Sequence record: NZ_CP025192.1
Source: a plasmid
DNA: 64,000 nt
Reading direction: 5' to 3' (one strand)
Shown here: one piece after another, positions 1,160 through 18,973 of the stretch
Layout of the letters: each line of letters begins with the position of its first letter
Position numbering within the stretch: the first letter of the stretch is position 1
Notes under the pieces: model-generated
Told to the model about the DNA's origin: nothing
Databases searched by the model: none
The model's input: the letters and a program-made list of their open reading frames with translations, nothing else
Translations under genes and position numbers: made by a program

Positions 1160-1188
1160 GTGTCCGGAAAAGAGAAGTTTCCGGACAC
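1160..1188. promoter_or_regulatory. Perfect 11-bp inverted repeat GTGTCCGGAAA-N7-TTTCCGGACAC ~30 bp upstream of the integrase start; candidate operator or recombinase-binding site
   Basis: Palindrome read directly from the sequence. A second inverted repeat GGCTTGC-N7-GCAAGCC lies at ~1204-1224. Confidence 0.3.
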
Positions 1189-1382
1189 AGCCACCGTAGC
1201 CGCAGGCTTGCTCCGAGGGCAAGCCTTCTGGCAGCCGCAATGCGGCAGGAGGTGAGCGGTGGTAAGGCCAGTTACCGCTCCTAACGCGGGCGCCGCTTGT
1301 TGCCGTCGCCAGCGACGCGCGTCCACACTCCTAGACAGCAACGAAGATGCTAATAGGCGTGTAGCCGGTAGAGGAGGCAAAG

Positions 1383-3149
1383 TTGTACAAACCGGGGGGC
1401 ACCATCGCCGAGGCACTCAGCCGCATCCAGAACAAGACCTATGTTCTGCCGGCGATCCAGCGCGAATTCGTCTGGAAGCCAGAGCAGATCGAGCGGCTGT
1501 TCGACAGCCTGATGCAGGGCTATCCGTTCGGCACCTTCCTGTTTTGGAAGGTGGAGCCGAGCACCAGCGGCAAGTTCAAGTTTTACGACTTCGTGCTGAA
1601 CTACCATCAGCGCGACGCCGCGCACTGCCCGGAGCTCGGCAAGATGCACCACCAGAGCGTCACGGCAGTGCTCGACGGACAGCAGCGCCTCACTGCCCTC
1701 AACATCGGCCTACGCGGTTCGATGGCGATCAAGCAGCCGAACAAATGGTGGACCAACCCGGACGCATTTCCAAAGCGAACGCTGCGCCTGGACCTGCTCG
1801 CACCGCAGACACCAGACGAGGACGGGGTGGTCTATCGGTTCCGCTTCCTCGACGACGGCCAGGCTGCGCGAGATGAGAAAGCCCACTGGTTCAGTGTGCC
1901 CGAGATCCTAGGCATGGAGGACGGACCGGCCATGTTGTCCGCGCTTATGACGCGCGGGCTGCAAGGTGACGCTCTAAGGGCCGCCTATTCGACCCTCGAC
2001 CGCCTCCACCGAGTCGTCCACTCGCACAACCTGATCAACTACTATGAAGAGGAGACGCAGGACGTCGAGCGCGTACTGAACATCTTCATCCGCCTGAACT
2101 CCGGCGGAACGGTGCTTTCCTATTCCGACCTCCTGCTGAGCATCGCGGTCGCTCAATGGAAGCAGGTGGACGCACGCGCCGAGATCCATGCTCTGGTCGA
2201 CGAGCTGAACCGGATCGGTACGGGCTTCTCATTGAGCCAGGATTTTGTGCTGAAGGCGGGGCTGATGCTGGCCGACATCGCCAGCGTCGGCTTCAAGGTC
2301 GAGAATTTCACCACCGCCAACATGGCCGCGCTCGAGGCGAACTGGCCCGCCATCCGGGCGGCGCTCGTGCGGACGGTCGAGCTGGCGGCCAGCTTTGGCC
2401 TCAACGGTCAAACCCTCCGCGCCGACAGCGCCCTCCTGCCGATCGCCTATCATCTCTATCGCCGGAACGTGCCTGCCAACTATGCCAGCCACAGCCAGTT
2501 CGCGGCAGATCGGGAGGCAATACGGGGTTGGTTGATCCGCTCGCTCCTGAAGGCGTCCGGCATCTGGGGCAGCGGCCTGGACACGCTGCTGACAGCCCTT
2601 CGCGAGGTCGTCCAGCAGCACGGGGCGGATGCCTTCCCGGTCATTCAGCTCAGGCAGGTGATGACGCAACGCGGCAAGTCGCTGACCTTCGAGCCGGCCG
2701 AAGTCGACGACCTTCTGCACATGGAATACGGCGACAAGCGGCTCTTTCCTCTGCTCGCCTTGCTGTTCCCGTTCGTCGACCTCAGGAACAACTTTCATGT
2801 CGATCACGTCTTCCCAATCTCTCGCTTCTCCCGCGCGAAGCTGCTGAAGGCGGGATTCAGCGGGGATCAGGCGGAGGACCTCGCCCGGCACGCGAACCAG
2901 CTGCCCAACCTGCAGCTGCTCGACGGCGCGATTAACAACGAGAAGCGCGCCGCCATGCCCGGCGAGTGGCTGGCCAAACAGTATCCTGATCCATCATCGG
3001 CGCAGCACTATCGAGAGAAGCATCTGCTTGGGAATGTGCCGGACGACCTCACGGGCTTCGCGGCCTTCCACGCGGCGCGGCGGGACCGGTTGCGAACTGT
3101 GCTGACCGGGATGCTGGTAGGACCGGCGCAGGTGTCGGATCAGGGGTAG
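1383..3149 (+). CDS. GmrSD-family type IV restriction endonuclease (DUF262 N-terminal, DUF1524 His-Me nuclease C-terminal); BrxU-like
   Basis: DGQQRLTAL signature of DUF262 and IQREFVW motif. C-terminal HVDHVFPISRF HNH-like motif of DUF1524. TTG start preceded by GAGGAGG. Confidence 0.8.
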   Translation: MYKPGGTIAEALSRIQNKTYVLPAIQREFVWKPEQIERLFDSLMQGYPFGTFLFWKVEPSTSGKFKFYDFVLNYHQRDAAHCPELGKMHHQSVTAVLDGQQRLTALNIGLRGSMAIKQPNKWWTNPDAFPKRTLRLDLLAPQTPDEDGVVYRFRFLDDGQAARDEKAHWFSVPEILGMEDGPAMLSALMTRGLQGDALRAAYSTLDRLHRVVHSHNLINYYEEETQDVERVLNIFIRLNSGGTVLSYSDLLLSIAVAQWKQVDARAEIHALVDELNRIGTGFSLSQDFVLKAGLMLADIASVGFKVENFTTANMAALEANWPAIRAALVRTVELAASFGLNGQTLRADSALLPIAYHLYRRNVPANYASHSQFAADREAIRGWLIRSLLKASGIWGSGLDTLLTALREVVQQHGADAFPVIQLRQVMTQRGKSLTFEPAEVDDLLHMEYGDKRLFPLLALLFPFVDLRNNFHVDHVFPISRFSRAKLLKAGFSGDQAEDLARHANQLPNLQLLDGAINNEKRAAMPGEWLAKQYPDPSSAQHYREKHLLGNVPDDLTGFAAFHAARRDRLRTVLTGMLVGPAQVSDQG

Positions 3150-3330: not shown

Positions 3331-4053
3331 TCAATAAGGGTTCGCCAAGGCCACGACCCGATTGCCCGCACCGTCGCCTCGCACCTCCAAGGCCGGCGAT
3401 GTCGACAGGAGGTAAGCGGCCGAGTCGCCCAGCGCGAACGGGAACATGACCGGGCTCGACGAGATGCCATCGACCGGGAGCGCGCGCCCCGCATACCGCA
3501 GGCACGCTTCGCTGAGCCACGCCGCGACCGGCGAGCCGTGCAGATCGATGGCAGGGGCGCGGGTGATCCGCTTCCCGTTGTCCAACTTCTCGATCGTCCC
3601 CCAGCTCGCCTGCGACTGGAGCACCATGTTCGTCATGCGGCGCGTACCCTCGCGCTCCCCGTAGGTCTCCGCCATCCGCCGGTGGACTTCCGCCGACCTG
3701 CAGTCGCCGTGCAGCGCCGTCAGCCGGCCAACGATCTCAGCCACCCTTCCGAAGAAGCTGTAGGTCGCCAGGGCCATACCCCAGGTCAGCGGGACGGCCG
3801 TCGTGGACGGCGCAGCGCGATAGATTCGCGCCCCGCGCGCGGTGAAGTCGAGGAGGTCCGGGCGCGGCTCGAGCCACAGCCTGTTCAGAACCGTCCGGGT
3901 CTTCTTCTTGGCCGCCGGGCCGGGATGCGCGGCGTCCAGCAACGCCGTCAGCTCGCCGAGGCTCGCCAGCCCGGCGCTCACGCGAAGAGCCGCCTCGGCC
4001 AGCTCGAGCGGGACGAAGCGGTCGAAGCCAATCTGTGCGGCGGCCGTGCTCAT
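3331..4053 (-). CDS. brxA: Putative BrxA-like terminal gene of the BREX type 3 operon (function inferred from position only)
   Basis: 240-aa ORF whose ATG overlaps the pglZ stop (ATGA). It occupies the brxA position of type 3 BREX. I cannot verify sequence similarity. Confidence 0.45.
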   Translation of the reverse strand: MSTAAAQIGFDRFVPLELAEAALRVSAGLASLGELTALLDAAHPGPAAKKKTRTVLNRLWLEPRPDLLDFTARGARIYRAAPSTTAVPLTWGMALATYSFFGRVAEIVGRLTALHGDCRSAEVHRRMAETYGEREGTRRMTNMVLQSQASWGTIEKLDNGKRITRAPAIDLHGSPVAAWLSEACLRYAGRALPVDGISSSPVMFPFALGDSAAYLLSTSPALEVRGDGAGNRVVALANPY

Positions 4054-6044
4054 TGATCGGCGTCCGCAACCTGCACCCGCACGAACGGCACGATGAGCTC
4101 CTCGACCGATGGTCCGCCGTGAGCGACGATCCGCTCCCCCCGCGGCACGAACGCCTTCCGAGTGCCCGCGTACACCGGCAACACTTCTGGAGGTAGCCCG
4201 GGCACGCCGAGACGGAAGGTGTCGAGCTCCGAAGGGACGGACGCCGCCAACGCGTCGCTACGGTATGTCCGAACCCTCTCGCCCTTGACCTCGGACACCA
4301 CGCCCTGGCTGAGCCGCCCGATTCCTTCGGCCTCCACGTTCCCGTGGTCGGCCGTCAGGTAGACCTGGTAGCCGTGCCCGGCGAGCAAGCGGACGAGGCC
4401 TTCGGCAAACCCGGTGTCGCACCAAGCGGCGATTTGGCCGCTGATGCCCCGCTTCCCGAGCATCGCCCCGTGCACCAGCTCGTCGACCATGTCGACGACG
4501 ATCCCGGCCACCTTCATTCCCGGCTTAGATATCGCCACGGCCAAGTCGGCCAGTTGCTCCGTCCGCTTCAACCCCTTCGCGTAGCACACCTCCGAGCTGC
4601 GGAGGCCGTTCTCCTGCCAGAAGCGCGCCCAAAGCTGCGGCTCCTGGGCCGTGGTGTCGATGGAGGTGGGGAACTCGCGCGGGCGGAGGCCGGAGAAGAG
4701 GGCCTGCCGGGAAACGGAGGTCAGGGTCGGAAGCCACGCGAAGCACGCGCCATCGTCCGCGGCGAAGCCGCGGACCCGCGCGGCCAGGTGGTCGCGGACC
4801 TGTAGCCACTGGTCCATGGCCAGGCCGTCGAACACCACGAGCGCAACGCGCACCTCGCCGGCGGCGCGGCGCAGCGCGAGGTACCTCGGCACGTGGTGGA
4901 CCATGACCGGCCCCCTCGCGGCCGGGAGGGACGGAAGGTCCGCGAAATGCGTCGTGACCCAGAGCCTCAGGCGATCGTCGGCGTCGCGCTGTAGTTGACT
5001 CACCTGCTGCTCCAGCGGTTTCGCGGCATCCACGTTCAGGGAGTGGAAGCGGAAGATCAGCTCCCCGAGGCGGCGCGCGAAGTCGGCCCAGTCGCGGTGG
5101 GACGACCCCGTCGAAGGTAGATTGGTGGCAAGCCGCCTGGCCCCCTGGCCCACCAAGTCTGCCTGCGTGTGCGGGTCTTCGACCAACCCCACCCTCACCC
5201 ATTCCGGCACGCCGGCGGGCGGCCTCCCGACGCCGACCGGACGAAGCCCGCCATCGAGGAACAACGTGCCGACGATCGCCCGGACGTCGGGGTGCTCGAA
5301 CGGCACCGCGATGGCAATCGACTCCACGGCTTCCGCGTCCGGGCCGCTGCCAGCGTCGATGCCCTGCTGGAGCAGGAACCGGCGCCAGGCATCCTGCAGG
5401 ACGCGCAACGTGAAGCTCATGGATGAGAGCAGATCGGCGACCGGGAGACCTCCGATCGCGGTGTCCTTCAACAGCTGCGCGACGTGGTCGGCCAGCACCC
5501 TCGGCAGGCTCGATCCGCGGTAGTGCAGGCGCAGCAGCTCCCGCCAGAAGTCCTCCGGGCCGCCCAGCATGTAGGGGCTGATCCGGAAGACGCGGGTGAG
5601 GATGAAGTCCTTGGTCGCCGCCTCGCCCAGCGGCTGCGGCGCATGCCGGTCTTGCGCCTGGAACATCGCCTCGTGATGCTCCGAGGCGATCTGCCTCACC
5701 ACGCTGTAGCTCAGCCTCGGGAAGAGGTCTGCCAAGCTGAGGCTTACCGTGCGAGCCTGACGGATGTAGTCCCACGGCAGCACGTTCACGTCGGTTCCGC
5801 GCAGCTGCAACACCAGCGCTTTTTCCGGTCCCGCCTCCCCCCGGTCCCACGCGTCCCGGTAGCGTTCCTCGAACTCCACGCGGAAGACGACCGGGTCGTC
5901 GAAGGGCAGAACCTCGAAGCCTCTCTCCCGGAGGCTGTGCAGCACGGCCTCGTCCAGTAGCACGTCGTCAGGATCGCAGGCGATCCAGAATCGGGCCAGC
6001 TCGGTGGGGAACTCCCGAAGGATCCGGTCGGTCCACGCGCTCAC
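4050..6044 (-). CDS. pglZ: BREX PglZ (alkaline-phosphatase superfamily PglZ domain)
   Basis: C-terminal TADHGN...HGG phosphatase-like motifs typical of the PglZ domain. Start overlaps the upstream helicase stop (ATGA). Confidence 0.8.
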   Translation of the reverse strand: MSAWTDRILREFPTELARFWIACDPDDVLLDEAVLHSLRERGFEVLPFDDPVVFRVEFEERYRDAWDRGEAGPEKALVLQLRGTDVNVLPWDYIRQARTVSLSLADLFPRLSYSVVRQIASEHHEAMFQAQDRHAPQPLGEAATKDFILTRVFRISPYMLGGPEDFWRELLRLHYRGSSLPRVLADHVAQLLKDTAIGGLPVADLLSSMSFTLRVLQDAWRRFLLQQGIDAGSGPDAEAVESIAIAVPFEHPDVRAIVGTLFLDGGLRPVGVGRPPAGVPEWVRVGLVEDPHTQADLVGQGARRLATNLPSTGSSHRDWADFARRLGELIFRFHSLNVDAAKPLEQQVSQLQRDADDRLRLWVTTHFADLPSLPAARGPVMVHHVPRYLALRRAAGEVRVALVVFDGLAMDQWLQVRDHLAARVRGFAADDGACFAWLPTLTSVSRQALFSGLRPREFPTSIDTTAQEPQLWARFWQENGLRSSEVCYAKGLKRTEQLADLAVAISKPGMKVAGIVVDMVDELVHGAMLGKRGISGQIAAWCDTGFAEGLVRLLAGHGYQVYLTADHGNVEAEGIGRLSQGVVSEVKGERVRTYRSDALAASVPSELDTFRLGVPGLPPEVLPVYAGTRKAFVPRGERIVAHGGPSVEELIVPFVRVQVADADQ

Positions 6045-8854
6045 GACGCGCCGCCCGCCGGGCCGCCAACGCGCAGCATGAGAACGGAGTGGAGGTCGGG
6101 CACGCGGATCTCGGCGGCGTCGAGCCGCGCCATGCGGGTCTCGTGCTCCGCGCGCAGGCGCCTGCGGCGATACTCGCGCACGCTCGGGAGCCCGATGCGG
6201 CCGATGGCCTGATACCTGACTTCGTAGGCGTGGCGGGCGCGGTCGCGCTCCTCCCGGATGCGGGCTGCGTGCTCTTCCGCCAGCTCGGCGAAGACCTGCT
6301 CACCGTTGGAGACGGCCGCACGCTTGGCGTCGTGGAACCACCGGCCCGGGACCTTCTCCGAGGAAAGCCCGACCAGCCGGATGCGCTCCGTGACGAGGAG
6401 ATCCCAGATCCGCCTCGCGGTCGGCATGAACATGCGCCCCTCGTCGCTCACGAAGACCGCCAGGAAGCGCCGCCTGCCGAAGTCCTCGGCCGACAGACCG
6501 ATCTGCCAAAGGGACCACACGCCCCTGACGGTATCGGGCAGCCCGCCGACCTCGACCACCGGGAGCGGCTGACCGTCCACGCAGCGGGGCAGCTCGGTGA
6601 TGACGGCCCGGGCCCGCGCGTCCTCGAGCGTGACCCACTCCACGTCCGGCCGGCTCGCCGCGGTACGCGCGTCGAAGCACGCACCGACAGATTCGCTGCC
6701 GTCGATCCAGCGGAGACGCCACGTATCGCCGTCCTTGATCGCAGCGCCCCCCTTCCCCGGCAGGCCGGTCGTGATCGCCCGCTCGAGCCAGAACTGCGCG
6801 GGGTGGTCCTGCCACTTGCGTGCGCCTTCCGCGTCGAGCTCCTGGTCGCCGGCGAGGAGGTCGACGTTCCTGCGGCTCTCTGCGACTGCCGACCGGAGCT
6901 GCGACGCCACCGCATCGCACTCGGCTTCGATCGCGTCCGGGTTCTGGAGGCCCTGCACGAACAGCTCGTCGAACAGCCCGTCCGCCTCAACCGAGTCCAT
7001 CACGTCCGCCGCCTTGTCGACGCCAAACTCCTCCGCGATGACGGCGAGCTTCGCCTCGAGAACCTCGCGGACCCGGTGCTCGACGGTGTCCTCAAGGACC
7101 AGGTTGATCGCGCGCACCACATGCGGCTGGCCGATGCGATCGACGCGACCGATGCGCTGCTCGACCCGCATGGGGTTCCACGGCATGTCGAAGTTGACGA
7201 TCACGTGGCAGAACTGGAGGTTGAGCCCCTCGCCACCGGCGTCGGTGGAGACGAGAATCCTGACGTCGCGGGCGAACGCCTGCTGCGCCCGCGTGCGGGT
7301 CTCAAGGTCCATGCCGCCGTTGAGCGTTGCGACCGAGAAGCCACGCGCCTCTAGGAGCGCGGCGAGCATGGCCTGCGTCGGCACGAACTCCGTGAAGACG
7401 AGGACCTTCAGCTGCGGGTCCCCTTCCTCCTGCTGGAGTTTGTAGATGAGATCCAGCAGCGCCTCGGCTTTCGCGTCGGTCCCCTGGGCCTCAGTAGAGC
7501 GGGCGAGCTCGAGAAGCACCTTGACCTCCGCCTTCTCCGTCTGCCAGCCCCTCGCCTCGACGGCCAAGTCGATCTGCGCCTGGCCGTCCAGATCCGCCCA
7601 CTCGTCGACGTCGGCGGTCTCGAAAAGGGACGGCTGGAGCTGCGGCTGGTCCAGCATTGCCAGGCGGTTCTCAAGCGTCGCGCGGATAGCCGCGGTGCTC
7701 GACGTCACCAGCCTCTGCATGAGTATCATGAGGAACCCGATGTGCCGCTGCTTCGCGGCCAGCGCCTGGTTGTAGCCGTGGCGGACGTAGTCGGTGATCG
7801 CCTCGTAGAGACTCCTCTGGGCCGCGTGGCGGTCCTGCCATGCTACGGGATGCAGCCTCGTCATCCGCGGCTTGAAGAGGGCCCTGCCTTCCGCGTCGAT
7901 CGCGGCGCGCTTCTCCGTCCGGATCACGAACGGCCGGACGCGGTCGCTCGTCACGCTACTCTCGTCGGGGAAGGAATCGCGGTCGAGCAGCTGCATGAGC
8001 CGGTGGAACTGGTCGGTCTTGCCCTGGTGGGGCGTCGCCGACAGGAGGAGCAGGTAGGGTGCGGCCTCGGCCAGCGCCGCCCCGAGCTTGTACCGCGCGA
8101 CCTGGTCCGTGCTGCCGCCCATGCGGTGCGCTTCGTCGATGATGACCAGGTCCCACGACGCCGAGACCAGGTCCTCGAAGCGCTCCCGGTTGTACGTGCT
8201 GAGCTGCTCGAGGGTCCAGCCGCGGCGCCCGTCCAGGGGCTTTACGGAATCGAGCGAGCAGATCACCTGGTCGTGGAGTCGCCAGAGGTTCTCCTCGTCG
8301 CTGCGCCACTGGCGGAAAGCGGAGAGCTCGGCCGGTTCGACGAATTGGAAGCTCTCGCCGAAGTGCAGCCGCATCTCCGCCTGCCACTGGCGCACGAGCC
8401 CCTTGGGCGCGACGACGAGGATCCGCTTCGCCATGCCGCGGAGCTTCAGCTCGCGTAGGATCAGCCCGGCCTCGATCGTCTTCCCGAGGCCCACCTCGTC
8501 CGCCAGGAGGTAGCGGATCCGGTGGCGCGCCATCGCGCGGTTCAGCGCGTAGAGCTGGTGCGGCAGCGGCACCACGCTGGACTGGACCGGCGCGAGCAGG
8601 AGGTCGTCCTCCAGCGCGTCGAGCAACCTCGCCGCCGCTGCGGTATGCAGGACGTGTTCGACCGTGGGCTGGACGGAGCCGAGCTGCGCGAGATCCTTCT
8701 CGCGGGCGCGTACGACAGCGTCACGGCTAGGCAGCCAAACCCGATAGGCGACCTCGCCCCAGATCTCTTCCCGGTCGATCACCCGGCAGGGTGCGGCATG
8801 TCGTCCGTGCCAACACCAATCGCCTACCGAGTGCCTGCCGCCGAGCTTGTTCAC
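6041..8854 (-). CDS. brxHII: BREX type 3 SNF2-family helicase BrxHII
   Basis: SNF2 motifs LLADEVGLGKTIEAG and LVIIDEAHRMGG (DEAH box) plus a helicase-C region. The ORF extends to 8980, but the GTG at 8854 overlaps the pglX stop (GTGA) and is the likely start. Confidence 0.8.
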   Translation of the reverse strand: MNKLGGRHSVGDWCWHGRHAAPCRVIDREEIWGEVAYRVWLPSRDAVVRAREKDLAQLGSVQPTVEHVLHTAAAARLLDALEDDLLLAPVQSSVVPLPHQLYALNRAMARHRIRYLLADEVGLGKTIEAGLILRELKLRGMAKRILVVAPKGLVRQWQAEMRLHFGESFQFVEPAELSAFRQWRSDEENLWRLHDQVICSLDSVKPLDGRRGWTLEQLSTYNRERFEDLVSASWDLVIIDEAHRMGGSTDQVARYKLGAALAEAAPYLLLLSATPHQGKTDQFHRLMQLLDRDSFPDESSVTSDRVRPFVIRTEKRAAIDAEGRALFKPRMTRLHPVAWQDRHAAQRSLYEAITDYVRHGYNQALAAKQRHIGFLMILMQRLVTSSTAAIRATLENRLAMLDQPQLQPSLFETADVDEWADLDGQAQIDLAVEARGWQTEKAEVKVLLELARSTEAQGTDAKAEALLDLIYKLQQEEGDPQLKVLVFTEFVPTQAMLAALLEARGFSVATLNGGMDLETRTRAQQAFARDVRILVSTDAGGEGLNLQFCHVIVNFDMPWNPMRVEQRIGRVDRIGQPHVVRAINLVLEDTVEHRVREVLEAKLAVIAEEFGVDKAADVMDSVEADGLFDELFVQGLQNPDAIEAECDAVASQLRSAVAESRRNVDLLAGDQELDAEGARKWQDHPAQFWLERAITTGLPGKGGAAIKDGDTWRLRWIDGSESVGACFDARTAASRPDVEWVTLEDARARAVITELPRCVDGQPLPVVEVGGLPDTVRGVWSLWQIGLSAEDFGRRRFLAVFVSDEGRMFMPTARRIWDLLVTERIRLVGLSSEKVPGRWFHDAKRAAVSNGEQVFAELAEEHAARIREERDRARHAYEVRYQAIGRIGLPSVREYRRRRLRAEHETRMARLDAAEIRVPDLHSVLMLRVGGPAGGAS

Positions 8855-11628
8855 CCGCCCCCCTCGGTCCGGGTGAGCGCCTGATCGTACCAGAGGAGGA
8901 GCTTCTCGTCCTCCTGCAGCGCCTCCTCGGGAATCTTCTGGGCGACGTCGATGATGATTTTGTAGTTCTTGGCCGACCAAGCCACCTTGAAGCCCGCGCG
9001 GAGCACTTCAAGACGGAACTCCTTCAGCCGTCGTCCGGGAGCTACTCGATACCCCTCGAACTCTTTTAGCAAAGCCCTCTCACGCTTCTGCTCCAGATCT
9101 TGCGCCTTACCAGGATCCGGCACGAACCAGCGGTCCTTCGCTTTTGCTTTCAACACTGGATCAGATTTCTCGCGATTCCGCATTTCATGATAGTTTGTTG
9201 AAAGATAGTTATGGATTTGGCTGGGCACATCGCTAGATCCATCGTAGCGCAAGAAATTGTCCTCAAGAAGATCGGAAAGTTCGGGGCGTGTTTCGTGCTT
9301 TTTCCAGCCTGCCCCGAGCTGAGTGATGAACTCCGGGTGCAATTCCTGGTAGGTCGATGGCCGCTTCCGGAGAAAATCGGTCAACCAATCGATGGCGCTA
9401 CGTTCGTCTGCAACGAACATTTCCATTTGCGGTGCCTTAGGCACTTGAGCGCGCTTCTTATCATACTCAATGACCTGATCAGGCAAGAATACCATGCCGT
9501 CTCGCTCTGGAAAGCGGCTCCGAAGACCTTCCTGAAACTCTTGGCTGGAAAGAGGCACAGGCACATTGTGCCGGATAAACCACGCCACCATACGGTCAAA
9601 CAGGATGCGGGGATCGCGCTCCGCGATGAACTCGAGCGCGGCAGCCTTCTGTTTTGTCACTGGCAACTGACGAAGATGGGTCTGGACAAAATCCCAGGCT
9701 GACTCCATTGCAGGCTGGTTTTCAAACCGCTGTTCCAATCCGCCATTCGGTTTATATGCCGATATTATGAGATCCTGCTTTACTGCGACGGTAGTGGTAA
9801 CGGACTTGAAACTTCCCTGCTTCTTGTCGAGAGTTGACACATCGGCAACCACGAACCCAGCTTCTTGTAAAGCGGTTTGCAGGCTGTTCCAAACAGACGC
9901 TTGTGTATTCGAAAATACAACAGTCATCCACCGACCTGGTTTGAGGACACGGTAATATTCAGCGAAGCAAGAGGCCATTATTCGACGATAATCATCAAGA
10001 GATTTTTGTGATGCACGATTTTCTTTGGACCGGTCTACAATCGCATCAAGCCGTGCGTCCGTCATAACGCCATGCCATGCCTCAACAAGAAAATTGAGTT
10101 CTGCGTACGGTAGATTTTCTCCGAACGGAGGGTCGGTGAATACATAGTCGATCGAGGAGTCTTCTAGGGGGAGTTTGGCTGCTGTGCCTGTGGTTGTGAT
10201 AGCATTCTGTGATCTAAGCCTGAAGGCGTCGAAAGCCTTCTCAAGACGGCTCAGCTTACCTTCAAGAATATACCACGGACTGCATTCTGCATGCTGCGCT
10301 CCAACATAATAAACGCCAGCCAGATATTGGTTGACTTGCGAAAAGTGAGTTGGCGCATATCGCGCGAGGATGGACATACCCCAAATCGCTTGCTCTACGA
10401 AGTACATCAACATCGATCGAATGCGGCCATCTTTGTAATTACACGCGCTCCGCCACAAAGCTCCCATGCCGTGCGCTGCACGAGACAGAAACATGTCTTG
10501 AACAGACGTAACGCCTTTGTCACGCATTCGTGGAGCTTCCCACATATCGGCATATGGGAAGCCGGTGGTGGGGACCTCTTCTGGAATAGGAAGGTCGTTG
10601 ATTTTCTTGATGAGAGCTAGGTCAGCAGCATCTGGCTTCTTCTCATACCGGGTGCCGCCCACTTTATACGAGATTAACGAAGGCGCGCGCTTGGGGACGC
10701 TTATCGTCTTGCCGGACAGAGCATCAATCTTCGTCTCATAGCGACGATCCAGCTTCTTTTTCGTAAGTGTTGCGCCGCAGTGGGGGCATGGAAATTCGTC
10801 CCGCACTCGCTTAGTCGAATCATCGAGTGCTTCGTCGATGAAATTCACTTCGTCGGCGCAGTCGGGACACGTGAAGAGTTCGCTCCAAACCGTGAACTCA
10901 ATTCGCCCCTTCGTTTTCCGATCTACATGCAATGTTTCATACATCCAGCCAATCTCGCGCTCGACTTCAGCGAGCAACCGCTTCCCGGCGGCGGCAAAGG
11001 CGCCGACATCAAATGGTAGATTATAGTTCGCGGCGATGAAGGTCGCCGCCGGCGACAGGTCGTTCAAAACGACCTTGCGTGCGCCCCATCGGGGCGCTGG
11101 TTGGCCAGCCTTCTTCCACTCCATCTCGAGCTGCTGGCGGTAGGTGGCGGGCGCCGTGCCGCACCATTGTGCCGCCACGCCTGTCATGCCTGACCCAGCA
11201 AAGCCGTCGAGCACGACGTCACCCGGTTCGGTGAAGTGCAGGATAGACGGCACGATGGCCAAGTGCGGCACTTTGGTGTGATAGGAGTGCGCCTTATAGA
11301 TCGGGTCCGTCTTACCGACCGAGACATCAATCGCCATCGGCTCGCGCGCATACTCCTTGGCCGGGTCGTAGGGCTTGCCGCAGTGCTTCACGAAATCGGC
11401 TAGCCAAGGGTTAGGGCAGGCCGTGTAGTAGGGCGGATCCGACATGGCCAGGATCGCCTCGTCGGTCCCCTTCGGGAACCCCTCCTGTGTGCGGAAGGCG
11501 GGGTCCTTCAGCTTCTCGGCCAGCAGCTTCCGGAAATGCTCGCGGCGCGCGTCCTCGTTCGGAAAGGTCAGCCCCAGGCATGTCACCGCACCTGCCGCGC
11601 CAGGGCGAGGGATCAGAGTCTCATTCAT
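8851..11628 (-). CDS. pglX: BREX adenine-specific DNA methyltransferase PglX (type 3 PglXI, N6_N4_Mtase family)
   Basis: 925 aa with DPPY and FTDPPFGENLPY methyltransferase motifs. It sits between brxC and the SNF2 helicase. The central and C-terminal part has markedly lower GC. Confidence 0.85.
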   Translation of the reverse strand: MNETLIPRPGAAGAVTCLGLTFPNEDARREHFRKLLAEKLKDPAFRTQEGFPKGTDEAILAMSDPPYYTACPNPWLADFVKHCGKPYDPAKEYAREPMAIDVSVGKTDPIYKAHSYHTKVPHLAIVPSILHFTEPGDVVLDGFAGSGMTGVAAQWCGTAPATYRQQLEMEWKKAGQPAPRWGARKVVLNDLSPAATFIAANYNLPFDVGAFAAAGKRLLAEVEREIGWMYETLHVDRKTKGRIEFTVWSELFTCPDCADEVNFIDEALDDSTKRVRDEFPCPHCGATLTKKKLDRRYETKIDALSGKTISVPKRAPSLISYKVGGTRYEKKPDAADLALIKKINDLPIPEEVPTTGFPYADMWEAPRMRDKGVTSVQDMFLSRAAHGMGALWRSACNYKDGRIRSMLMYFVEQAIWGMSILARYAPTHFSQVNQYLAGVYYVGAQHAECSPWYILEGKLSRLEKAFDAFRLRSQNAITTTGTAAKLPLEDSSIDYVFTDPPFGENLPYAELNFLVEAWHGVMTDARLDAIVDRSKENRASQKSLDDYRRIMASCFAEYYRVLKPGRWMTVVFSNTQASVWNSLQTALQEAGFVVADVSTLDKKQGSFKSVTTTVAVKQDLIISAYKPNGGLEQRFENQPAMESAWDFVQTHLRQLPVTKQKAAALEFIAERDPRILFDRMVAWFIRHNVPVPLSSQEFQEGLRSRFPERDGMVFLPDQVIEYDKKRAQVPKAPQMEMFVADERSAIDWLTDFLRKRPSTYQELHPEFITQLGAGWKKHETRPELSDLLEDNFLRYDGSSDVPSQIHNYLSTNYHEMRNREKSDPVLKAKAKDRWFVPDPGKAQDLEQKRERALLKEFEGYRVAPGRRLKEFRLEVLRAGFKVAWSAKNYKIIIDVAQKIPEEALQEDEKLLLWYDQALTRTEGGG

Positions 11629-13495
11629 TGTCGGCCTCGTTCGTGGGGCGCGCCGCGGGCTGACGGCCTGCGCGCAGCGCTCGGAGCTTGATGCCGGCCT
11701 CCGTCAGCACATACTGCTGGTTTGGCGACCGAGGTTTGTCCGGTACGGTCATTCGCAGTACGCGCGCCTGCAGAAGCGGCTCGAGGTACTGTGCCATGAA
11801 GTGCGGACGCTGCTTGTAGCCCGCCCGCGCCATGAGATCTGCGAGGCTGCGCGGCACGTCCGCGTGCTCGACGACGCGCCACTGGCCTTCAGTCAACCGA
11901 TCAAGCGACCGAACAAGCTCGGGCTGGCTGTCGGCAGCTTGTTCGGTGGCTTGTTCGGTCGTGGATGACGCCGTTGTCTGGTCCCCGCCCCCTTGGCCCT
12001 GTGGCGCCGCACCGGCCAGCGACGGCCCGTAACGCGAGCGGAGATGGGCGGGCAGCGTGTACTGAGCCCCCCCGGTTTCTAGCGGTGCCACCAGAACCTG
12101 GGCAACCAGGCGCTCGATAACCGCCTTCGCCGCAGCACTGGTCAGGCCCGTGAGCGCCTTGACGTCGGTGAGGTCGATGTGGCCGCGGCGGGTAAGGTAC
12201 GCGAAGACCGCCGCCTCGTGCTCCGACAGGCTGGCCCCGAGGCTCGCCTGAGCCAGGAGCTGCTCCTCGGTGATCAGCTTCTCCTTCCGCATCGTCAGCC
12301 GGAAGGTCTTGTCCGCCTTGTCGTTGTCGATCTCCGGCGGGAGATAGCCGAGGCTCCGCCAGCCGTTGAAGATCGCGCCGACCCCGGTGCCGCCCTGGTC
12401 GGACAGACCGATACGCCGGAAGGCGTTCACGACGCTTGGGTTGCGGACCTCCTTGTCGCCGGGGTCCAGCAGCCTTTCCCTCGGGGAGAACGCATCGCCC
12501 GGATTGAAGAACTCGGTCTGGTTATGGAAGAACCTGATCACCGGGAGCCGTGTGTGGTCAGAGAAGTCCTGGTGGATGAGCAGGTTGATGGCCGCCTCGC
12601 GGAAGGACACGTAATCGGCGGGGTCATCGTCGCGTCTAAAGGTCGCCGCGTCGACCGAGAACGGGCGCTCGCTGTGCTTGAAGTAGAAGCCGACGATGCT
12701 CTGCCAGGTCTGGATCAGGTTCTCTTCGCAGGTCACGCGGTCCGCCCAGCGGACGCTCGGGGAGTAGTCATCCGCGCCGCTCCGATACAGCTGCAGGTCT
12801 ACCGCCATGCGGGGTAGGATTTGACGGAAGTAGCCGTCCGCGCCCAGCGTGAGGATCGCTGCCCGAGTCGGGAGCAGGACGCCGCCGTGCTCGACGACGA
12901 AGCTCCACCTGCGCAGGAAGGCGTCATCGTCGTCGCCCTCGTTCCTCCCTGGGTTGCTGGCGTTGAAGCGTGCCCGGTACCACCGCAGCGATGCTGCGTC
13001 GAAGCACTGTTTGATGTCCAAATCCAACGGCTCAGCATCGAAGCGCTCGGTGGCCCCATCCCGATAGAAGCGGAGCAACTCGTCGGCGGTGCACGTGTCA
13101 TCGCGACCACCCCGACGGATGAATGCCTTGCGCAGATCCCGGTCGATGTAGACCGGCTTAGCGCGACGTTCGGCCTCGGGGATCCAGAAGGCCAGCACCG
13201 TGCCTTCGGGCAGATTGTGCAGGTGAGCGCGGACAGGCAGCCGTACGCTAATCTTGTTCAGATCGCGCAATTGGCCGAGGAAGTCGTTCTGAACATTGTC
13301 CGCCTCGACGACGCCGGTGACCGAGAAGGAGCCGCGCGTCTCCTTGACCCCGAACACGAGGTACCCACCCGACGTATTGGCGAACGCGCTCACCGTGGAG
13401 AAGGCATTGCGCGGCACCATCGTGGCGGCCTCCTTGAACTCCACGTCGTTCCATTCGATGGACTGGAGCTTCGCCAGCAACTCGTCGCGGGTCAT
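11621..13495 (-). CDS. AlbA_2 (Schlafen-like) + HATPase_c_4 + C-terminal wHTH protein inserted in the BREX operon
   Basis: SIEWNDVEFKEA...SAFANTSGGYLVFGV matches the AlbA_2 signature. AINLLIHQDFSDH...FFNPGD matches the HATPase_c_4 signature. The ATG at 13495 lies 2 nt after the brxC stop, and the 3' end overlaps the pglX start by 8 nt. The ORF runs to 13930, but its N-terminal 145 aa are an overlap artefact. Confidence 0.7.
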   Translation of the reverse strand: MTRDELLAKLQSIEWNDVEFKEAATMVPRNAFSTVSAFANTSGGYLVFGVKETRGSFSVTGVVEADNVQNDFLGQLRDLNKISVRLPVRAHLHNLPEGTVLAFWIPEAERRAKPVYIDRDLRKAFIRRGGRDDTCTADELLRFYRDGATERFDAEPLDLDIKQCFDAASLRWYRARFNASNPGRNEGDDDDAFLRRWSFVVEHGGVLLPTRAAILTLGADGYFRQILPRMAVDLQLYRSGADDYSPSVRWADRVTCEENLIQTWQSIVGFYFKHSERPFSVDAATFRRDDDPADYVSFREAAINLLIHQDFSDHTRLPVIRFFHNQTEFFNPGDAFSPRERLLDPGDKEVRNPSVVNAFRRIGLSDQGGTGVGAIFNGWRSLGYLPPEIDNDKADKTFRLTMRKEKLITEEQLLAQASLGASLSEHEAAVFAYLTRRGHIDLTDVKALTGLTSAAAKAVIERLVAQVLVAPLETGGAQYTLPAHLRSRYGPSLAGAAPQGQGGGDQTTASSTTEQATEQAADSQPELVRSLDRLTEGQWRVVEHADVPRSLADLMARAGYKQRPHFMAQYLEPLLQARVLRMTVPDKPRSPNQQYVLTEAGIKLRALRAGRQPAARPTNEADNE

Positions 13496-13497
13496 GG

Positions 13498-16400
13498 CTA
13501 CTCCACCACGAACCGCAGTTTGGTGGTGTCCCTGCCCTTGCACCGGTCGCTCAGGAACGTCTCGAAACGCTTGCGCAGGTCCTCGGGCGTGGCCGGCGAA
13601 CCGCCCTGGAGCAGCGCCTGCTTGATCTCGCCGCCGGTGACTGGGATCTTCTCGAGGCCTGACAGCGCCTCCTGCACCGCCGCGACGAAGTCCGAGCCCA
13701 CCGGATCGGGAAGCGCCTTCGACGCGACGAACCCGTCGACCAGCTTCCGGGTCGCGGGCTTGAGCAGGTCGAAGTTCGCCTGGATTATCGGGTCTTCCAG
13801 GTTGTCCAGCAGCGTCTGCTGCCACCCATCGAGCAGCCGGTCGAGCTCGCCGTCCAGCTGCTTCAGCATGGTCGCTGCCGGCAGCATGTCGCCCTGTTCG
13901 CTCGTCGGCCGGAAGTGGCAGTGTGGGCAAACAGGACTGGCTGCGAGGTCCGCATCCATCAAAGAGTCGCAGCTCTTTAGCTTGCCGAGCTTGTCCTCGA
14001 AGCTGTCGAGCTGGCTGGTGGGCATCAAGGAAATGTTGCGGAGCACTCGCATTGCGATCAGCCGACCGTCCTTGCGCAGAGCTTCCTTACTCTTGTTCTC
14101 CGCCACGCCGAGGCGCGCTCTGCTATGCTGCCCGACGTAGGCAGCAACGTAGTCTTTCTTCAGGCGTGCCAGGATTTGCCGGTACTCGCCTGCGTGCTGC
14201 GCAGTTCGATCGGTTGCGAGCCGCTCAAACACCTGCTTGCGCGCCGCTTGCGCCTGCTGCACCCAGGGATCATCGCCCGTCAGCACCATCTCGGCCTGCG
14301 AGAGGTAGCCGGCCGCGGTGCCCAATTCCGCGACGAGTTCCAGCATGCGTTCGACGGCGTCCAGCGCCTCCAGGTGCTTCTTTTGCGCCGCCACGTCGTC
14401 CGAGCCGACGCGCAGGTTCTTGAGCTTGCCCACCGTGTTGTACGGAGACAGACTCTCCGCGAAGGCCTTCAGCGCATCCAGCTTCGCCCGCCAGTCGGCG
14501 AGCTCGTTCTCGCGCAGGAGCGGCTGCCCCCAGAAGCTCAGCCGTCCCGCCATATCGGTCGTCGCGGCGAGCACGCGCCGCGTCAGCTTCGTGACCTCCT
14601 CCTGCAGCCGCTTGACCGGCTCGTCGGACCCCTGCGCGGCCTGCTGCGCGAGACCGGGCTGGAGGCCGAGCATCTCGAATAGCGCGCGAAGGACGGCGAC
14701 GTTGATCTCCCGCGGGGCCTCGACGTGCTTAAACTGCCGGAGCTCGTCGAGCGGCCGCTCGGCGAGCAGCGCGATCTTGCCAGGATCGATCTTGTCGCCG
14801 GCGACCGCCAGCACGATGTCGCCCGAGTAGACGAGTGCGCCCAGCACCGCGACGAGCAGATCGGGCTCTAGCCGGAACTTGAGCGGCGCGAAGTACTCGA
14901 CGTCGGCGCCGCCGCTCAGCAGCTCGCCGCGGTTCAGCACCTGCCCGTGGCCCTTCGCCTTGAGACGCGAGAGGACCTCCTGCGCGTAGCGGGACCGCTC
15001 CGGGTCGAGGCGATCGCCGTCCAGCATCTCGAGGCCGTCCAGGATGACCACCGCGTCCTTGGTGCGGGGCCCGCCGGCGAGGGCGCGCAGCGCGTTCCCA
15101 ACGAGCTGCTTTCGGTTCGCCTCGGTCAGCAGCGCAGTGAACGTCGGGTACTCGGGCGCCACCTCAGCGAACCGGTTGCCCAGCGCCACGCCGGCGATCA
15201 CGTTCACCACGTCGCGGAAGTTGATGCGCTCGTCGGGCCGCAGCCGCGCCTTGTCGCGCAGCGAGATCCCCTTCGTCCACTCCTGTAGGGTCCGGGCCTT
15301 GCCCTGGTAGGTGACCTCGTAGGCCGCCATTTGCTTTTCCTGCAGCCACTTGCCCATCTCGCGCAGGGCGTCGTTCGCCTTGTCGAGGTAGACGCTTTTG
15401 GCGGCGCCGCTGGCGGTCGACGCGAGGTCCTGCGCAGCGGCGTAGCAGGACAGGTGCCGCCTGATCGCGTCGTCGGGGCCCTTGAGCCGGAAGAACACCT
15501 CGTCGGCCTTGTGCTCGTCGCGAAAGCGCGGCGGCTCGAACGGCTGGATGAAGTAGATGTAGAAGTCGCGCTCGGGCTGCGCCGTCGGCCGGTCGTTCGG
15601 CGCGCCGAAGAAGAGGTAGCCGATGCGCTCGACGCGGCGCTCCTGCCACTCGATCTGGTACTGCCAGATCTGGTGGCCGGCGACGTAGGTGGTCTCGTCC
15701 GTGCGCTCCATGAGCTGGCGGACCGCGCTGAAGTAGGCGCGGTCGAGCGCGTCGTCCGAGAGCGCCTCGGCCCGCTTCTCGATCTGGGCGTCGTAGTCGA
15801 CGTCCTTCTTTAAATCCAGGAAGTACTGGTCGGTGTCGGGCGCCCTGGAGATGAACTGGCCGTTGACGGTCTTCAGCGTCTCGCGGAGGACGGTCTGCAC
15901 CAGGGAAAGCAGGTCGGCGTCGGGCTCGCCGCCCATCGCGTCGATGCCCGGTTGGAACAGGCAGAGCGTGTCCCGCAGTTCGGTGGCGGTTGGCCCCACG
16001 GGCACGTAGATGTCCCCGCCCGTCGTCAGCCGGTGCACCGAGAGGCCGTTGATGATCCGGAGCGCCATTGGCCGGTAGGCGGGACGGGTGAACGCCTTCC
16101 TTACCCGTTCGGACAGAACCTCGGAAACTTTCAGCACCGGCCCGATGCTCGGGTCGGCGCGGAGGACGGAGTTGGCCGTGATCGTGTCCCAGAACCTGTC
16201 GTAGCCGATCAGCCCCGGGCGGTCGCCCGGTACCTCGTCGTCCAGGATGTCCTGGATCTGGTCGCGGAGGGTGACCAGCGCGCCGCGCTTCTCGGCGAAG
16301 ACCAGGCGCTCGAACGTCCCGATGTAGTCGGGGTGCACCGGGAACAGCCGCACGTAGTCGTCCATGCGCTCGTTCATGGACCCGTAAAACTTGGAGAACG

Positions 16401-17253
16401 GCGCCAGGTACGCCCGGATCCGCTCCTGCTGGTCGGCGGTCTTCTTCAGCAGACGCTCCGCCACGACGAAGCTGACGTCCTGCCGGGCGAGCAGGATCTG
16501 CGTGAACCGGTCCTTCACGCGGCGCAGGCTGTCGGCCACGTGCTGGAAGCGGCTGCTGTCGAAGACCGCCTCCTGGACGCCGGCGACGAAGCGGAACCTC
16601 AGGTGCTTCGTGACCTCGCCGATCTCCCGCAGGAAGGACAGGTCGAGGACGAGGTCGTGGTCCCTCCGGGACCGCAGGTACTCGAGGAACTCGTCGACGA
16701 CGAGGAGTACGCCCTGGTTTGGGTGGCGCTCGGCGAAGGCCGCCATCATCTCCTCGAAGGCGGCCTTGTTGTTGATGACCTTGTTGGCCGGCGGGAAGAC
16801 GTAGCTTACCCCGTTCTTCTCTAAGAAGATCTCGAGCTGCTGCGTGACGATGTCCCGCAGGGACATCTGGCTCGAGATCTCGATGCGGTGCACCTTGAAC
16901 TTCCCGGCGATCGCCGCGGCCGCCTCGGCGACCTTAGGATGGCGGATCATCGGGACGTACGCGGCGTCTTCGGCCACCAGCGAGAGTACCGACATGAGGT
17001 GCGACTTGCCGGTGCCGTAGTTCCCGACGACGAGCACCCCCTTGTGGTCCACCGCCTCGTCGAACGAGAGCTGCGGGACGATGAGCTTCGCGATCCGCTC
17101 AGCCATGTCGTCCGAGATCACGTAGGTCGACACCAGCTTCCGCGCCTCGTCCGGGCGGTTGGCGTCCAGAAGTTGGATGACGGACTCGATCGGCTCGAAC
17201 TGGATCAGGTCGCCATAGCGCATCGGCATCCGGTCTTTCCTGCTAACCAACAT
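13498..17253 (-). CDS. brxC: BREX ATPase BrxC/PglY (large P-loop protein)
   Basis: 1251 aa with Walker A GNYGTGKSH near the N-terminus. Size and position match BrxC. Confidence 0.85.
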   Translation of the reverse strand: MLVSRKDRMPMRYGDLIQFEPIESVIQLLDANRPDEARKLVSTYVISDDMAERIAKLIVPQLSFDEAVDHKGVLVVGNYGTGKSHLMSVLSLVAEDAAYVPMIRHPKVAEAAAAIAGKFKVHRIEISSQMSLRDIVTQQLEIFLEKNGVSYVFPPANKVINNKAAFEEMMAAFAERHPNQGVLLVVDEFLEYLRSRRDHDLVLDLSFLREIGEVTKHLRFRFVAGVQEAVFDSSRFQHVADSLRRVKDRFTQILLARQDVSFVVAERLLKKTADQQERIRAYLAPFSKFYGSMNERMDDYVRLFPVHPDYIGTFERLVFAEKRGALVTLRDQIQDILDDEVPGDRPGLIGYDRFWDTITANSVLRADPSIGPVLKVSEVLSERVRKAFTRPAYRPMALRIINGLSVHRLTTGGDIYVPVGPTATELRDTLCLFQPGIDAMGGEPDADLLSLVQTVLRETLKTVNGQFISRAPDTDQYFLDLKKDVDYDAQIEKRAEALSDDALDRAYFSAVRQLMERTDETTYVAGHQIWQYQIEWQERRVERIGYLFFGAPNDRPTAQPERDFYIYFIQPFEPPRFRDEHKADEVFFRLKGPDDAIRRHLSCYAAAQDLASTASGAAKSVYLDKANDALREMGKWLQEKQMAAYEVTYQGKARTLQEWTKGISLRDKARLRPDERINFRDVVNVIAGVALGNRFAEVAPEYPTFTALLTEANRKQLVGNALRALAGGPRTKDAVVILDGLEMLDGDRLDPERSRYAQEVLSRLKAKGHGQVLNRGELLSGGADVEYFAPLKFRLEPDLLVAVLGALVYSGDIVLAVAGDKIDPGKIALLAERPLDELRQFKHVEAPREINVAVLRALFEMLGLQPGLAQQAAQGSDEPVKRLQEEVTKLTRRVLAATTDMAGRLSFWGQPLLRENELADWRAKLDALKAFAESLSPYNTVGKLKNLRVGSDDVAAQKKHLEALDAVERMLELVAELGTAAGYLSQAEMVLTGDDPWVQQAQAARKQVFERLATDRTAQHAGEYRQILARLKKDYVAAYVGQHSRARLGVAENKSKEALRKDGRLIAMRVLRNISLMPTSQLDSFEDKLGKLKSCDSLMDADLAASPVCPHCHFRPTSEQGDMLPAATMLKQLDGELDRLLDGWQQTLLDNLEDPIIQANFDLLKPATRKLVDGFVASKALPDPVGSDFVAAVQEALSGLEKIPVTGGEIKQALLQGGSPATPEDLRKRFETFLSDRCKGRDTTKLRFVVE

Positions 17254-17782
17254 TGAACGGCACCCACCCTTCCGTGCCGTAGTTCTGGTGCTCCGGGTGG
17301 CCCGGCACCGCGTAGACCAGACGCCCGTCCCGCAGCTCTCCCGGCCAAGCGGCGACGACGCGGCGCCCGTGGGAGTGCCGCCTCATCAGGTCCAGGGGAC
17401 TGAGCCGTAGGGTCCAGTCGAAGAGGAGCTCTATGTTGTCCCAGAGCAGCAGGTCACGGCCGACCGTCCCGTCGGCCAGTTCCTTCAGCAGGTCGGGAGC
17501 CATGAGGTGCCGTTGGGACGCGGGCAGCGGGACGAGGAGGCGGCCGAGAGCCTCGCCCAGCCGCATGACGGGGGCATTCCGGCGCGTGGAAAGCTGCCCC
17601 AGCAGCTTGCTCTTGCCGGATCCCGGAGGACCGACGAGGAGCACGAGCTTGCTATTCAAGCCCGCGACGTCTTCGACGAGGCGCTCAAGGATGTCGATCA
17701 CGGTACGCGCCTTGAACAGAGCCGAAGGTTCCGACCTCGAGCCGCATCGAGCGCCGACGCGAGGCTCTCTGGCGGAGGGCAC
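17243..17782 (-). CDS. brxF: BREX type 3 small P-loop ATPase BrxF
   Basis: 179 aa with Walker A LVGPPGSGKSKL. It is the first gene of the operon and overlaps the brxC start by 11 nt. Confidence 0.65.
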   Translation of the reverse strand: MPSAREPRVGARCGSRSEPSALFKARTVIDILERLVEDVAGLNSKLVLLVGPPGSGKSKLLGQLSTRRNAPVMRLGEALGRLLVPLPASQRHLMAPDLLKELADGTVGRDLLLWDNIELLFDWTLRLSPLDLMRRHSHGRRVVAAWPGELRDGRLVYAVPGHPEHQNYGTEGWVPFNVG

Positions 17783-18310: not shown

Positions 18311-18973
18311 GTGGCTGCGACGGTGCTGACGGTGGCGTCCACAAAGGGCGGCGCCGGCAAGACGACGATCGTGATGGCGCTCGCCGGCACCCTCGCCGCC
18401 GAGGGGCTGCGCGTCGCTGTCGTGGACGCAGACCCGAACCGCGCCTACGCCTCCTGGGCCGAGCAGGCCTACGAGGGCCCCGCCATCGCGGTCCGCGCCG
18501 AGGCAGACGAGGCGCGGCTCGCGGCGGCGATCGACGAGCTATCGCCCCAGGCCGACCTGGTCCTGGTGGACACGGCCGGCTTCGGCAACCGCGCCGCCCT
18601 GCTCGCCATGGCCGCGGCCGACGCCGTGCTCGTGCCCTGCACCCCGAGCCGCGCCGACGTCGAGCAGGCCGCTAAGACACTGGAACTGGTGGATGGCGCC
18701 GCTCGGGCGGCGCGGCGCGCCATCCCCGCGCGCGTTGTTCCATCGCGCCTGAAGCAGGCGACCGCGGTGTCGCGCCATGCGGTGGCCGAGCTCGACGCGG
18801 CCGCCCTCCCCCGCACCGCCGCCGGGGTCGGCGACCGCGTCGCCTTCGCCGAGATGACCTTCTCCGGCCGCGTCCCCGCCGGCGGCGACGCCGGGCAGGA
18901 GGTCGCGAAGCTGGTCGCGGAGCTGCGCAAGCTCGGCTGGTTGCCGCCCAAGCCGAGGGCGGCTCGCGCGTAG
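18311..18973 (+). CDS. parA: ParA-family partition ATPase
   Basis: Deviant Walker A KGGAGKTT. GTG start preceded by GGGGGACGGAG. Confidence 0.85.
   Translation: MAATVLTVASTKGGAGKTTIVMALAGTLAAEGLRVAVVDADPNRAYASWAEQAYEGPAIAVRAEADEARLAAAIDELSPQADLVLVDTAGFGNRAALLAMAAADAVLVPCTPSRADVEQAAKTLELVDGAARAARRAIPARVVPSRLKQATAVSRHAVAELDAAALPRTAAGVGDRVAFAEMTFSGRVPAGGDAGQEVAKLVAELRKLGWLPPKPRAARA

Follow-up and report, generated by a model that had tools for sequence, protein, structure and literature searches.

Why should the base composition of a single gene in a defence operon fall part way along the coding sequence and recover before its end? We address this question for pglXI (brxXI), the DNA methyltransferase gene of a type 3 bacteriophage exclusion (BREX) operon of Roseomonas on the plasmid record NZ_CP025192.1, of which a stretch of 64,000 nucleotides (nt), referred to below as the window, was analysed. 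A first-pass annotation of this DNA, made from the letters alone, had called the gene pglX and had proposed, from a drop in guanine-plus-cytosine (GC) content, that its target-recognition region had been swapped. Our analysis suggests that pglXI is a natural chimera, formed by homologous recombination with a diverged allele of lower GC content and most likely directed to a new target motif, a reading to which we assign a probability of about 0.82.

The GC drop in pglXI lies at synonymous sites

Sliding-window GC and codon-usage profiles were not uniform, and the intragenic break reported by the first-pass annotation was confirmed at the place given there. In 300-nt windows the flanking BREX genes had a GC content of 0.65–0.70, compared with 0.47–0.54 at 9001–10800, with values of 0.57 at 10801–11100 and 0.63–0.68 at 11101–11700. 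The AT-rich 35-mer quoted in that annotation occurs once, at 9186–9220, and the pglXI tract was the sole extended stretch below 0.55 GC in the whole window. GC at third codon positions (GC3) was 0.88–0.92 in brxC, brxHII, pglZ and brxA. Within pglXI it was 0.80 for codons 2–195, 0.60 for codons 196–240, 0.52 for codons 241–880 and 0.91 for codons 881–925. For codons 241–880, a GC3 of 0.90 would be expected if the same amino acids were encoded with the codon usage that the other BREX genes show, as against the 0.52 observed (z = −31). The GC drop is therefore a synonymous-site effect.

The annotation had also seen the same pattern in a DUF559 gene (22062–22560). There the dip is an effect of the first and second codon positions (GC1/GC2) in a C-terminal region rich in lysine, glutamate, asparagine and isoleucine, and GC3 stays at 0.70–0.90; with the dip traced to amino acid composition, the gene was ruled out as a second case of a swap. 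The open reading frame (ORF) concerned, DUF559/MTES_1575-like, runs from 22062 to 23189 on the minus strand (375 residues); its lower-GC 3′ part bears no sign of a foreign segment.

The centre of pglXI departs from its sister operons

A search with the adjacent BrxHII protein yielded relatives at 90–95% identity on the sister contigs L088 (Teichococcus oryzae), L089/L090, L091 and L092, metagenomic contigs among them. The operon is the same in all, and L088, L089/L090 and L092 also share the cargo gene that lies between brxC and pglXI. When the whole locus was aligned with L088 and L089 in 150-nt windows, nt identity was 0.90–0.98 in brxF, brxC, brxHII, pglZ and brxA (brxHII against L088, 0.90–0.98) and 0.79–0.91 in the cargo gene and over the 5′ ~600 nt of pglXI. 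From ~11020 to ~9000 it was 0.53–0.71; it returned to 0.80–0.85 at the 3′ end of pglXI and exceeded 0.93 (to 0.98) in brxHII. On entry into the tract, identity to these two loci drops from 0.85–0.91 to 0.53–0.70. Conserved flanks thus enclose a low-identity centre (0.90–0.98 against 0.53–0.70 nt identity), as in exchange of the modA type discussed below.

The same profile was seen in the protein. Against L088, L089 and L091, amino acid (aa) identity was 86–92% over residues 1–195 (88–92% against the sister PglXI proteins P0098, P0100 and P0103), 60–63% in the target-recognition domain (TRD), 67–70% in the second half of the methyltransferase core (core-2), 73–74% in the first two putative helix-turn-helix-like domains (HTH1–2) and 84–87% in the third (HTH3). 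Against L084 and L085 the relationship was reversed, with 76% in the TRD, 92% in core-2 and 84% in HTH1–2, compared with only 75–79% in BrxHII and 59–69% in PglZ. GC3 of the equivalent segments in the sisters was 0.67–0.90.

Three-way comparison gave 225 informative nt sites: outside the tract, 92% grouped the window with the sisters, and inside it, 84% grouped the window with L084/L085. The gene is a mosaic. The 5′ junction (in gene orientation) lies between ~11040 and ~10900 and the 3′ junction between ~9020 and ~8975, and maximum-likelihood breakpoints fell at residues 237–243 and 878–885. We set the 5′ junction at residues ~196–243, in or just after the conserved block L188–F206, because composition already shifts at residues 196–240; the 3′ junction lies in a conserved block around residues 870–885.

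We looked for the source of the tract in several places. blastn and tblastn searches of pglXI against the whole window, aimed at silent cassettes or repeats, returned the gene itself only, and extra partial copies with inverted repeats of the kind seen in shufflons were absent from the window. PLSDB plasmids gave only 69% nt matches, and no donor. Phage-borne orphan PglXI-like genes were considered as cassette donors and rejected, as their TRDs shared no more than 57% identity with the TRD of any BREX-linked gene in the sample. Four IMG/VR contigs (L094, L095, L102 and L103) carry PglXI-like genes that have neither brxC nor brxHII nor pglZ as neighbours within ~8 kb, and L103 has two tandem PglXI-like cores; these genes may be orphan or phage-borne methylases, or belong to BREX-related DUF499 systems.

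Domain map of PglXI and extent of the exchanged tract

The label pglX, which denotes the type 1 enzyme, proved wrong for this gene. PglX of type 1 BREX is a gamma-class enzyme of ~1200 residues with an NPPY motif and a C-terminal TRD (PMC11341690), and its operon includes brxB and brxL. The present protein has 925 residues, a PF01555 domain and a DPPF motif, and its best PADLOC match was the PglXI model (residues 13–923, 1331 bits); the operon contains brxF and brxHII, and neither brxB nor brxL. The Pfam model PF01555 (N6_N4_Mtase) was matched at E = 3.6e-17, with residues 493–650 covering profile positions 1–116.

Motif I (FAGSG) lies at residues 143–147 (nt 11188–11202), and residues 118–158 align to the C-terminal motif I region of CcrM (6pbd). 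Motif IV (DPPF), at residues 499–502 (nt 10123–10134), aligns to the N-terminal DPPY of the same structure. Judged by these motif and PF01555 placements, the Rossmann core of PglXI is split into two halves, ~340 residues apart from motif I to motif IV. Between them, column entropy in the family alignment peaks at residues 270–480, and C254, C257, C281 and C284 (nt 10777–10869), which form a predicted four-cysteine zinc finger, are invariant in 31 sequences. This architecture matches that given for BrxXI/PglXI in PMC12839542 (NAR 2026), where a brief N-terminal prelude leads into a Rossmann core interrupted between strands 2 and 3 by a recognition insert of ~250 residues, which bears a four-cysteine zinc finger, and a C-terminus of ~280–300 residues follows. 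That paper assigns three HTH-like domains to the C-terminus and reports that TRDs diverge rapidly, and our TRD and HTH assignments were taken from it.

An AlphaFold2 model built from the 31-sequence alignment had a mean predicted local distance difference test (pLDDT) score of 53.5, with values of 73–92 only in the insert, where an α+β module at residues ~207–420 was the sole confidently modelled part. Helices were predicted at residues 644–922, with pLDDT below 50 over most of residues 724–843. We used the model for the insert only; the domain map rests on the motifs, the CcrM alignment and the published map.

Set on this map (Table 1), the tract carries more of the enzyme than had been proposed. 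The first-pass annotation was right that the 5′ ~600 bp are of high GC content, and this part holds the half of the enzyme that binds S-adenosylmethionine (AdoMet), with motif I, rather than the whole catalytic N-terminus as it had supposed. A foreign low-GC segment is indeed present and includes the most variable region of the protein, which the literature assigns as the TRD. It is not confined to the specificity-determining part, but extends over the DPPF half of the core and about two C-terminal helical domains. The annotation had named a low-GC segment over conserved catalytic motifs, in place of the variable region, as a result that would speak against its proposal; the tract covers both, motif IV along with the variable region. 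The ORF is intact and all family-invariant residues are retained, including FAGSG, DPPF and the four cysteines. The domain order of a type 1 ‘pglX’ should thus not be transferred to type 3 genes during annotation.

A second, N-terminal DPPY-like motif (SDPPYY; DPPY at residues 64–67) was noted upstream of motif I, in the region of residues 61–65 (nt 11434–11448). Residues D64, P65 and P66 are invariant in the family alignment and Y67 is nearly so.

Table 1 Features of the pglXI locus in the window
Feature	Position (nt)	Strand	Basis and remarks
brxA	3331..4053	-	PADLOC BrxA; resident flank; 97% nt identity to L088
pglZ	4050..6044	-	PADLOC and Pfam; resident flank; 95% nt identity to L088
brxHII, SNF2-type helicase, 937 aa	6041..8854	-	PADLOC and Pfam; resident flank; 90–95% aa identity to proteins P0122–P0126
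pglXI (brxXI), type 3 BREX N6-adenine DNA methyltransferase, 925 aa, intact ORF	8851..11628	-	PADLOC, PF01555
Resident 3′ end of pglXI, aa 871–925, last helical domain and stop codon	8851..9018	-	GC3 0.91 for aa 881–925
Imported low-GC tract, ~codons 196–880	8990..11040	-	nt identity, informative sites, GC3
Putative C-terminal helical (HTH-like) domains 1–2, aa 641–870	9019..9708	-	GC3 0.57; assignment from PMC12839542; within imported tract
Core-2, second methyltransferase-core half, aa 481–640, DPPF	9709..10188	-	PF01555; GC3 0.43; within imported tract
Nested target-recognition insert, aa ~200–480, with predicted zinc finger	10189..11031	-	Entropy, invariant Cys, PMC12839542; within imported tract
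Resident 5′ part of pglXI, aa 1–195, N-terminal prelude and first methyltransferase-core half	11041..11628	-	GC3 0.80; motif I
Cargo gene, 624-aa AlbA_2 / HATPase_c_4 / Fic-like_C protein	11621..13495	-	Pfam; no PADLOC match; not core BREX
brxC/pglY, DUF6079 ATPase, 1243 aa	13498..17229	-	PADLOC and Pfam; resident flank; 91–92% nt identity to sisters
brxF, 152 aa	17243..17701	-	PADLOC BrxF; gene call in L081

Proposed exchange and its effect on specificity

We reasoned that a diverged pglXI allele from a lower-GC source probably entered by horizontal transfer and recombined with the resident gene in a RecA-type homologous exchange, replacing ~2.05 kb (roughly codons 196–880). One crossover would have fallen in the conserved strand-2/motif II block that immediately precedes the nested insert, and the other in the conserved block where the last helical domain begins. 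In that case the resident lineage would have kept the AdoMet-binding half and the final C-terminal domain, and the donor would have given the zinc-finger insert, the catalytic DPPF half and two C-terminal domains of DNA-binding type. If the methyltransferase sets the motif used for methylation and for self/non-self discrimination in type 3 BREX, as it does in type 1, the most likely effect is that the operon now marks and restricts a DNA motif unlike that of the sister operons. Such a change of specificity is suggested by analogy with type 1 PglX and with the Type III methyltransferase ModA.

The recombination could also be real and functionally neutral, a gene conversion between iso-specific alleles that read the same motif. 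The family is conserved over its full length, with top matches at 72–83%, and the transfer took along core-2 and the HTH domains, neither of which is expected to determine specificity, as would suit breakpoints that were set by homology and not by function. However, the TRD is 60–63% identical to that of the sisters while the rest of the operon is at 88–96%, and it is the segment of the family that is uncoupled from operon phylogeny, as expected under diversifying or frequency-dependent selection on specificity. The modA alleles, which give the same picture in their DNA-recognition domain (DRD), do differ in target (PMC3311624). We therefore consider a neutral exchange unlikely, and a changed target motif the likelier outcome.

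Direction of the exchange

Identity of the flanks grouped the operons as (window, L088), L089 and (L091, L092). One cassette type, named A, was found in L088, L089 and L091, and so in both flank-defined pairs; unique cassettes are carried by the window (type B) and by L092 (type C). The tract in the window also had the largest GC3 deficit among the sisters (0.43–0.57 against 0.90). In the simplest history, an A-type background received imports on two independent occasions, and the window allele came from one of them.

The opposite polarity, in which the window cassette is ancestral and the sisters acquired theirs, draws on the fact that the cassettes of the sisters are also below their flanks in GC3 (0.67–0.77 against 0.87), and that the sisters share only 79–84% nt identity with one another in the TRD and core-2, compared with about 90% in the flanks, and may thus have been exchanged too. 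It is nevertheless quite improbable, given that type A occurs in both flank-defined subclades and the window type in one operon only, and that the largest GC3 deficit is expected of the most recent arrival. The change was thus from an A-type gene to the present chimera.

The other unique cassette belongs to an operon whose pglXI was altered separately. L091 and L092 share 94–97% nt identity in brxC, brxHII, pglZ and brxA, and 37% aa identity in the TRD of pglXI. In L092 (7236–10004) the N-terminal part of PglXI has 68% aa identity to that of L091 and a GC3 of 0.47, an independent and differently bounded replacement. The TRD of L092 is 36–40% identical to that of types A or B, and its N-terminal part was replaced as well. 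The gene is intact with all motifs; the stored gene calls give only a 191-aa ORF at its 3′ end.

Exchange of the recognition block across the family

In pairwise comparisons of 90 loci, TRD identity followed brxC identity poorly (Spearman 0.19) and core-2 did so somewhat better (0.38), whereas the N-terminal part, HTH1–2, HTH3, brxHII and pglZ all tracked brxC (Spearman 0.71–0.93). Nearly identical operons with a different block made up many of the pairs, among them L011/L020 (brxC 99%, TRD 56%), L051/L086 (98% and 37%) and L002/L029 (96% and 56%); conversely, a few pairs, such as L025/L027, have the block in common (TRD 94%) in operons that differ (brxC 72%). The breakpoints vary from pair to pair around a common replaced core at residues ~250–650/700. 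Exchange of the block thus recurs in the family, and its phylogenetic discordance, the mark of modA-like alleles, was seen in the informative sites, the Spearman coefficients and the discordant pairs alike.

Base composition followed a family-wide pattern as well. In the 70 loci with an operon GC3 of at least 0.65, GC3 at residues 241–540 was below the operon reference by 0.12–0.22. No 30-codon window of brxC or brxHII was off by more than 0.1, including segments at least as variable in protein; the last three 30-codon windows of PglZ deviated by at most −0.12 and the first three of BrxA by at most −0.15.

This trough, which is absent from other equally variable segments and persists in low-GC hosts, is what an explanation without transfer would build on, with selection keeping synonymous GC low so as to throttle expression, pace the folding of the zinc-finger insert or preserve a nucleotide-level element. 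Selection on composition could still feed the family-wide trough, but it fails to explain the fall from above 90% to 53–70% nt identity or the switch of nearest relative, and discordant phylogeny was demonstrated for the window itself, where no second copy or repeat of the gene was present. Promoter-like sites were absent from 6000–14000 and terminator-like sites were fewer than in shuffled sequences, a scan that ruled out an internal promoter or terminator as the cause of the AT-richness. As the sole origin of the tract, such selection is very improbable. An assembly chimera of two pglXI alleles is practically negligible, because the identical 925-aa protein occurs on several independently assembled contigs: NCBI (100% identity to ‘DNA methyltransferase [Roseomonas mucosa]’), the JGI metagenome 3300022463, and the Logan runs SRR28522859 and SRR25997723.

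Points that weigh against a simple exchange

Several results do not sit easily with the import of a single cassette that altered specificity. The 5′ junction is diffuse, composition pointing to residue ~196 and informative sites to residues 237–243. Moreover, brxC and brxHII are closer to the sisters than are the 5′ end of pglXI and the cargo gene (80–90% nt identity), so the locus may have gone through more than a single event. The searches turned up no close donor: a whole-protein search of 5.8 billion clusters gave nothing between 83% and 100% identity, and the best match to the tract has only 76% (TRD) to 92% (core-2) aa identity, about 70–77% in nt. The putative change of specificity is itself argued by analogy; the portions of the literature consulted tie no type 3 BREX recognition motif to PglXI residues.

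Finally, the GC3 deficit of the TRD and core-2, followed in 70–93 related loci (L001–L106), was present in every host-GC class, low-GC operons included. As a general rule, recently acquired DNA is AT-richer than its host, and the deficit fits this tendency. A simple model of mixing from a common pool was discarded, as it predicts GC-richer cassettes in low-GC hosts and these were not seen. Because a deficit in all classes does not suit such mixing, selection on composition may add to the GC3 signal.

Operon organization and setting

PADLOC and Pfam identified the minus-strand operon at 3331–17701 as a type 3 BREX gene set, with PADLOC matches to BrxF, BrxC (1753 bits), PglXI (1331 bits), BrxHI|BrxHII (1400 bits), PglZ (731 bits) and BrxA, and the Pfam domains DUF6079, PF01555, SNF2/Helicase_C and PglZ. 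The gene order is brxF, brxC, cargo gene, pglXI, brxHII, pglZ, brxA.

Between brxC and pglXI lies a cargo slot, whose content differs among related loci. It holds the AlbA_2/HATPase_c_4/Fic-like_C gene (624 residues) in the window, L088, L089 and L092, a 140-aa gene in L091 and a 445–449-aa gene without a Pfam match in L085/L086, and is empty in L084. The adjoining 3′ end of brxC (about 14300–13900) is less conserved, at 0.75–0.85 nt identity.

On one side, the BREX island is bordered by an integrase gene (131–1240, minus strand) and a GmrSD_N-domain gene (1383–3149, plus strand), and GmrSD_N genes also flank related operons (L086/L087). On the other side, from 17900, lie genes for a PhdYeFM antitoxin, ParA (18311–18973, plus strand) and RepA_C (19727–20737, plus strand). 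With RepA_C, ParA and PhdYeFM genes and an integrase beside it, the island is probably part of a plasmid or of some other mobile element.

Relation to known systems and implications

The closest known case is the exchange of modA DRD alleles in Neisseria and Haemophilus, Type III alleles that are replaced en bloc, are of lower GC content and have different targets (Gawthorne et al. 2012, PMC3311624). ModA and PglXI are both N6-adenine methyltransferases of PF01555 type. In both genes the variable recognition region is central and is exchanged in one piece, through homologous recombination in the conserved 5′ and 3′ parts on either side; the exchanged region has a lower GC content than the remainder of the gene, and its flanks are scarred by further events. 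The two differ in that pglXI belongs to a six-gene BREX operon and not to a Mod–Res pair, and in that its recognition insert is nested in the Rossmann core, so that the exchanged unit usually drags the motif IV half (core-2) with it and, in the window, two C-terminal helical domains as well. Furthermore, exchange of pglXI spans many genera of Proteobacteria, whereas that of modA concerns two naturally transformable genera. No phase-variable repeat tract turned up for pglXI, in an analysis that included no search aimed at one.

Type 1 PglX offers a functional parallel. In the work of Went et al. (2024, PMC11341690), it is a specificity factor whose methylation and defence are both retargeted by a change of TRD, and PglXI would share this logic, shown for type 1, of a methyltransferase that sets the BREX motif. 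PglX is nevertheless of another family and topology, with its TRD at the C-terminus, and its retargeting there was engineered and not the result of natural recombination. Shuffling of TRDs in Type I hsdS and movement of TRDs between methyltransferases, as described by Furuta and Kobayashi (PMC3467074 / PMC3575425), likewise diversify specificity, with recombination at conserved flanks relocating the recognition domains. Such systems often draw on partner copies within the same genome or on silent cassettes that can be inverted, unlike pglXI, for which the window holds no second fragment. The sections of PMC12839542 that were consulted, together with term searches of that paper, described no case in which a cassette was replaced among near-identical operons, and no synonymous GC trough.

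Import of a recognition cassette is a known route by which defence systems change their targets, and the present locus shows such an import in type 3 BREX. Specificity turnover of this kind, familiar from Type I and Type III restriction–modification, would thus reach the major BREX type that is described as the least explored, for which the literature, in the portions consulted, reports no tested recognition motif or specificity determinant. The window and its sisters form a natural allelic series, with operons that are 90–97% identical and a pglXI centre that was replaced at least twice with different breakpoints. Two predictions go with this series, namely that the motif is set by the nested zinc-finger insert, alone or together with the C-terminal helical domains, and that a split-core chimera of two lineages is functional.

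More tentatively, type 3 BREX operons may possibly be a stable chassis that repeatedly imports a cassette of the TRD and the motif IV half from an AT-richer mobile pool. If this were so, the GC3 deficit would mean either that cassettes turn over much faster than their composition ameliorates, or that it is a selected, nucleotide-level property of the cassette, and the three natural cassettes (A, B and C), set in operons that are otherwise almost isogenic, would give direct access to the way in which type 3 BREX recognizes its motif.

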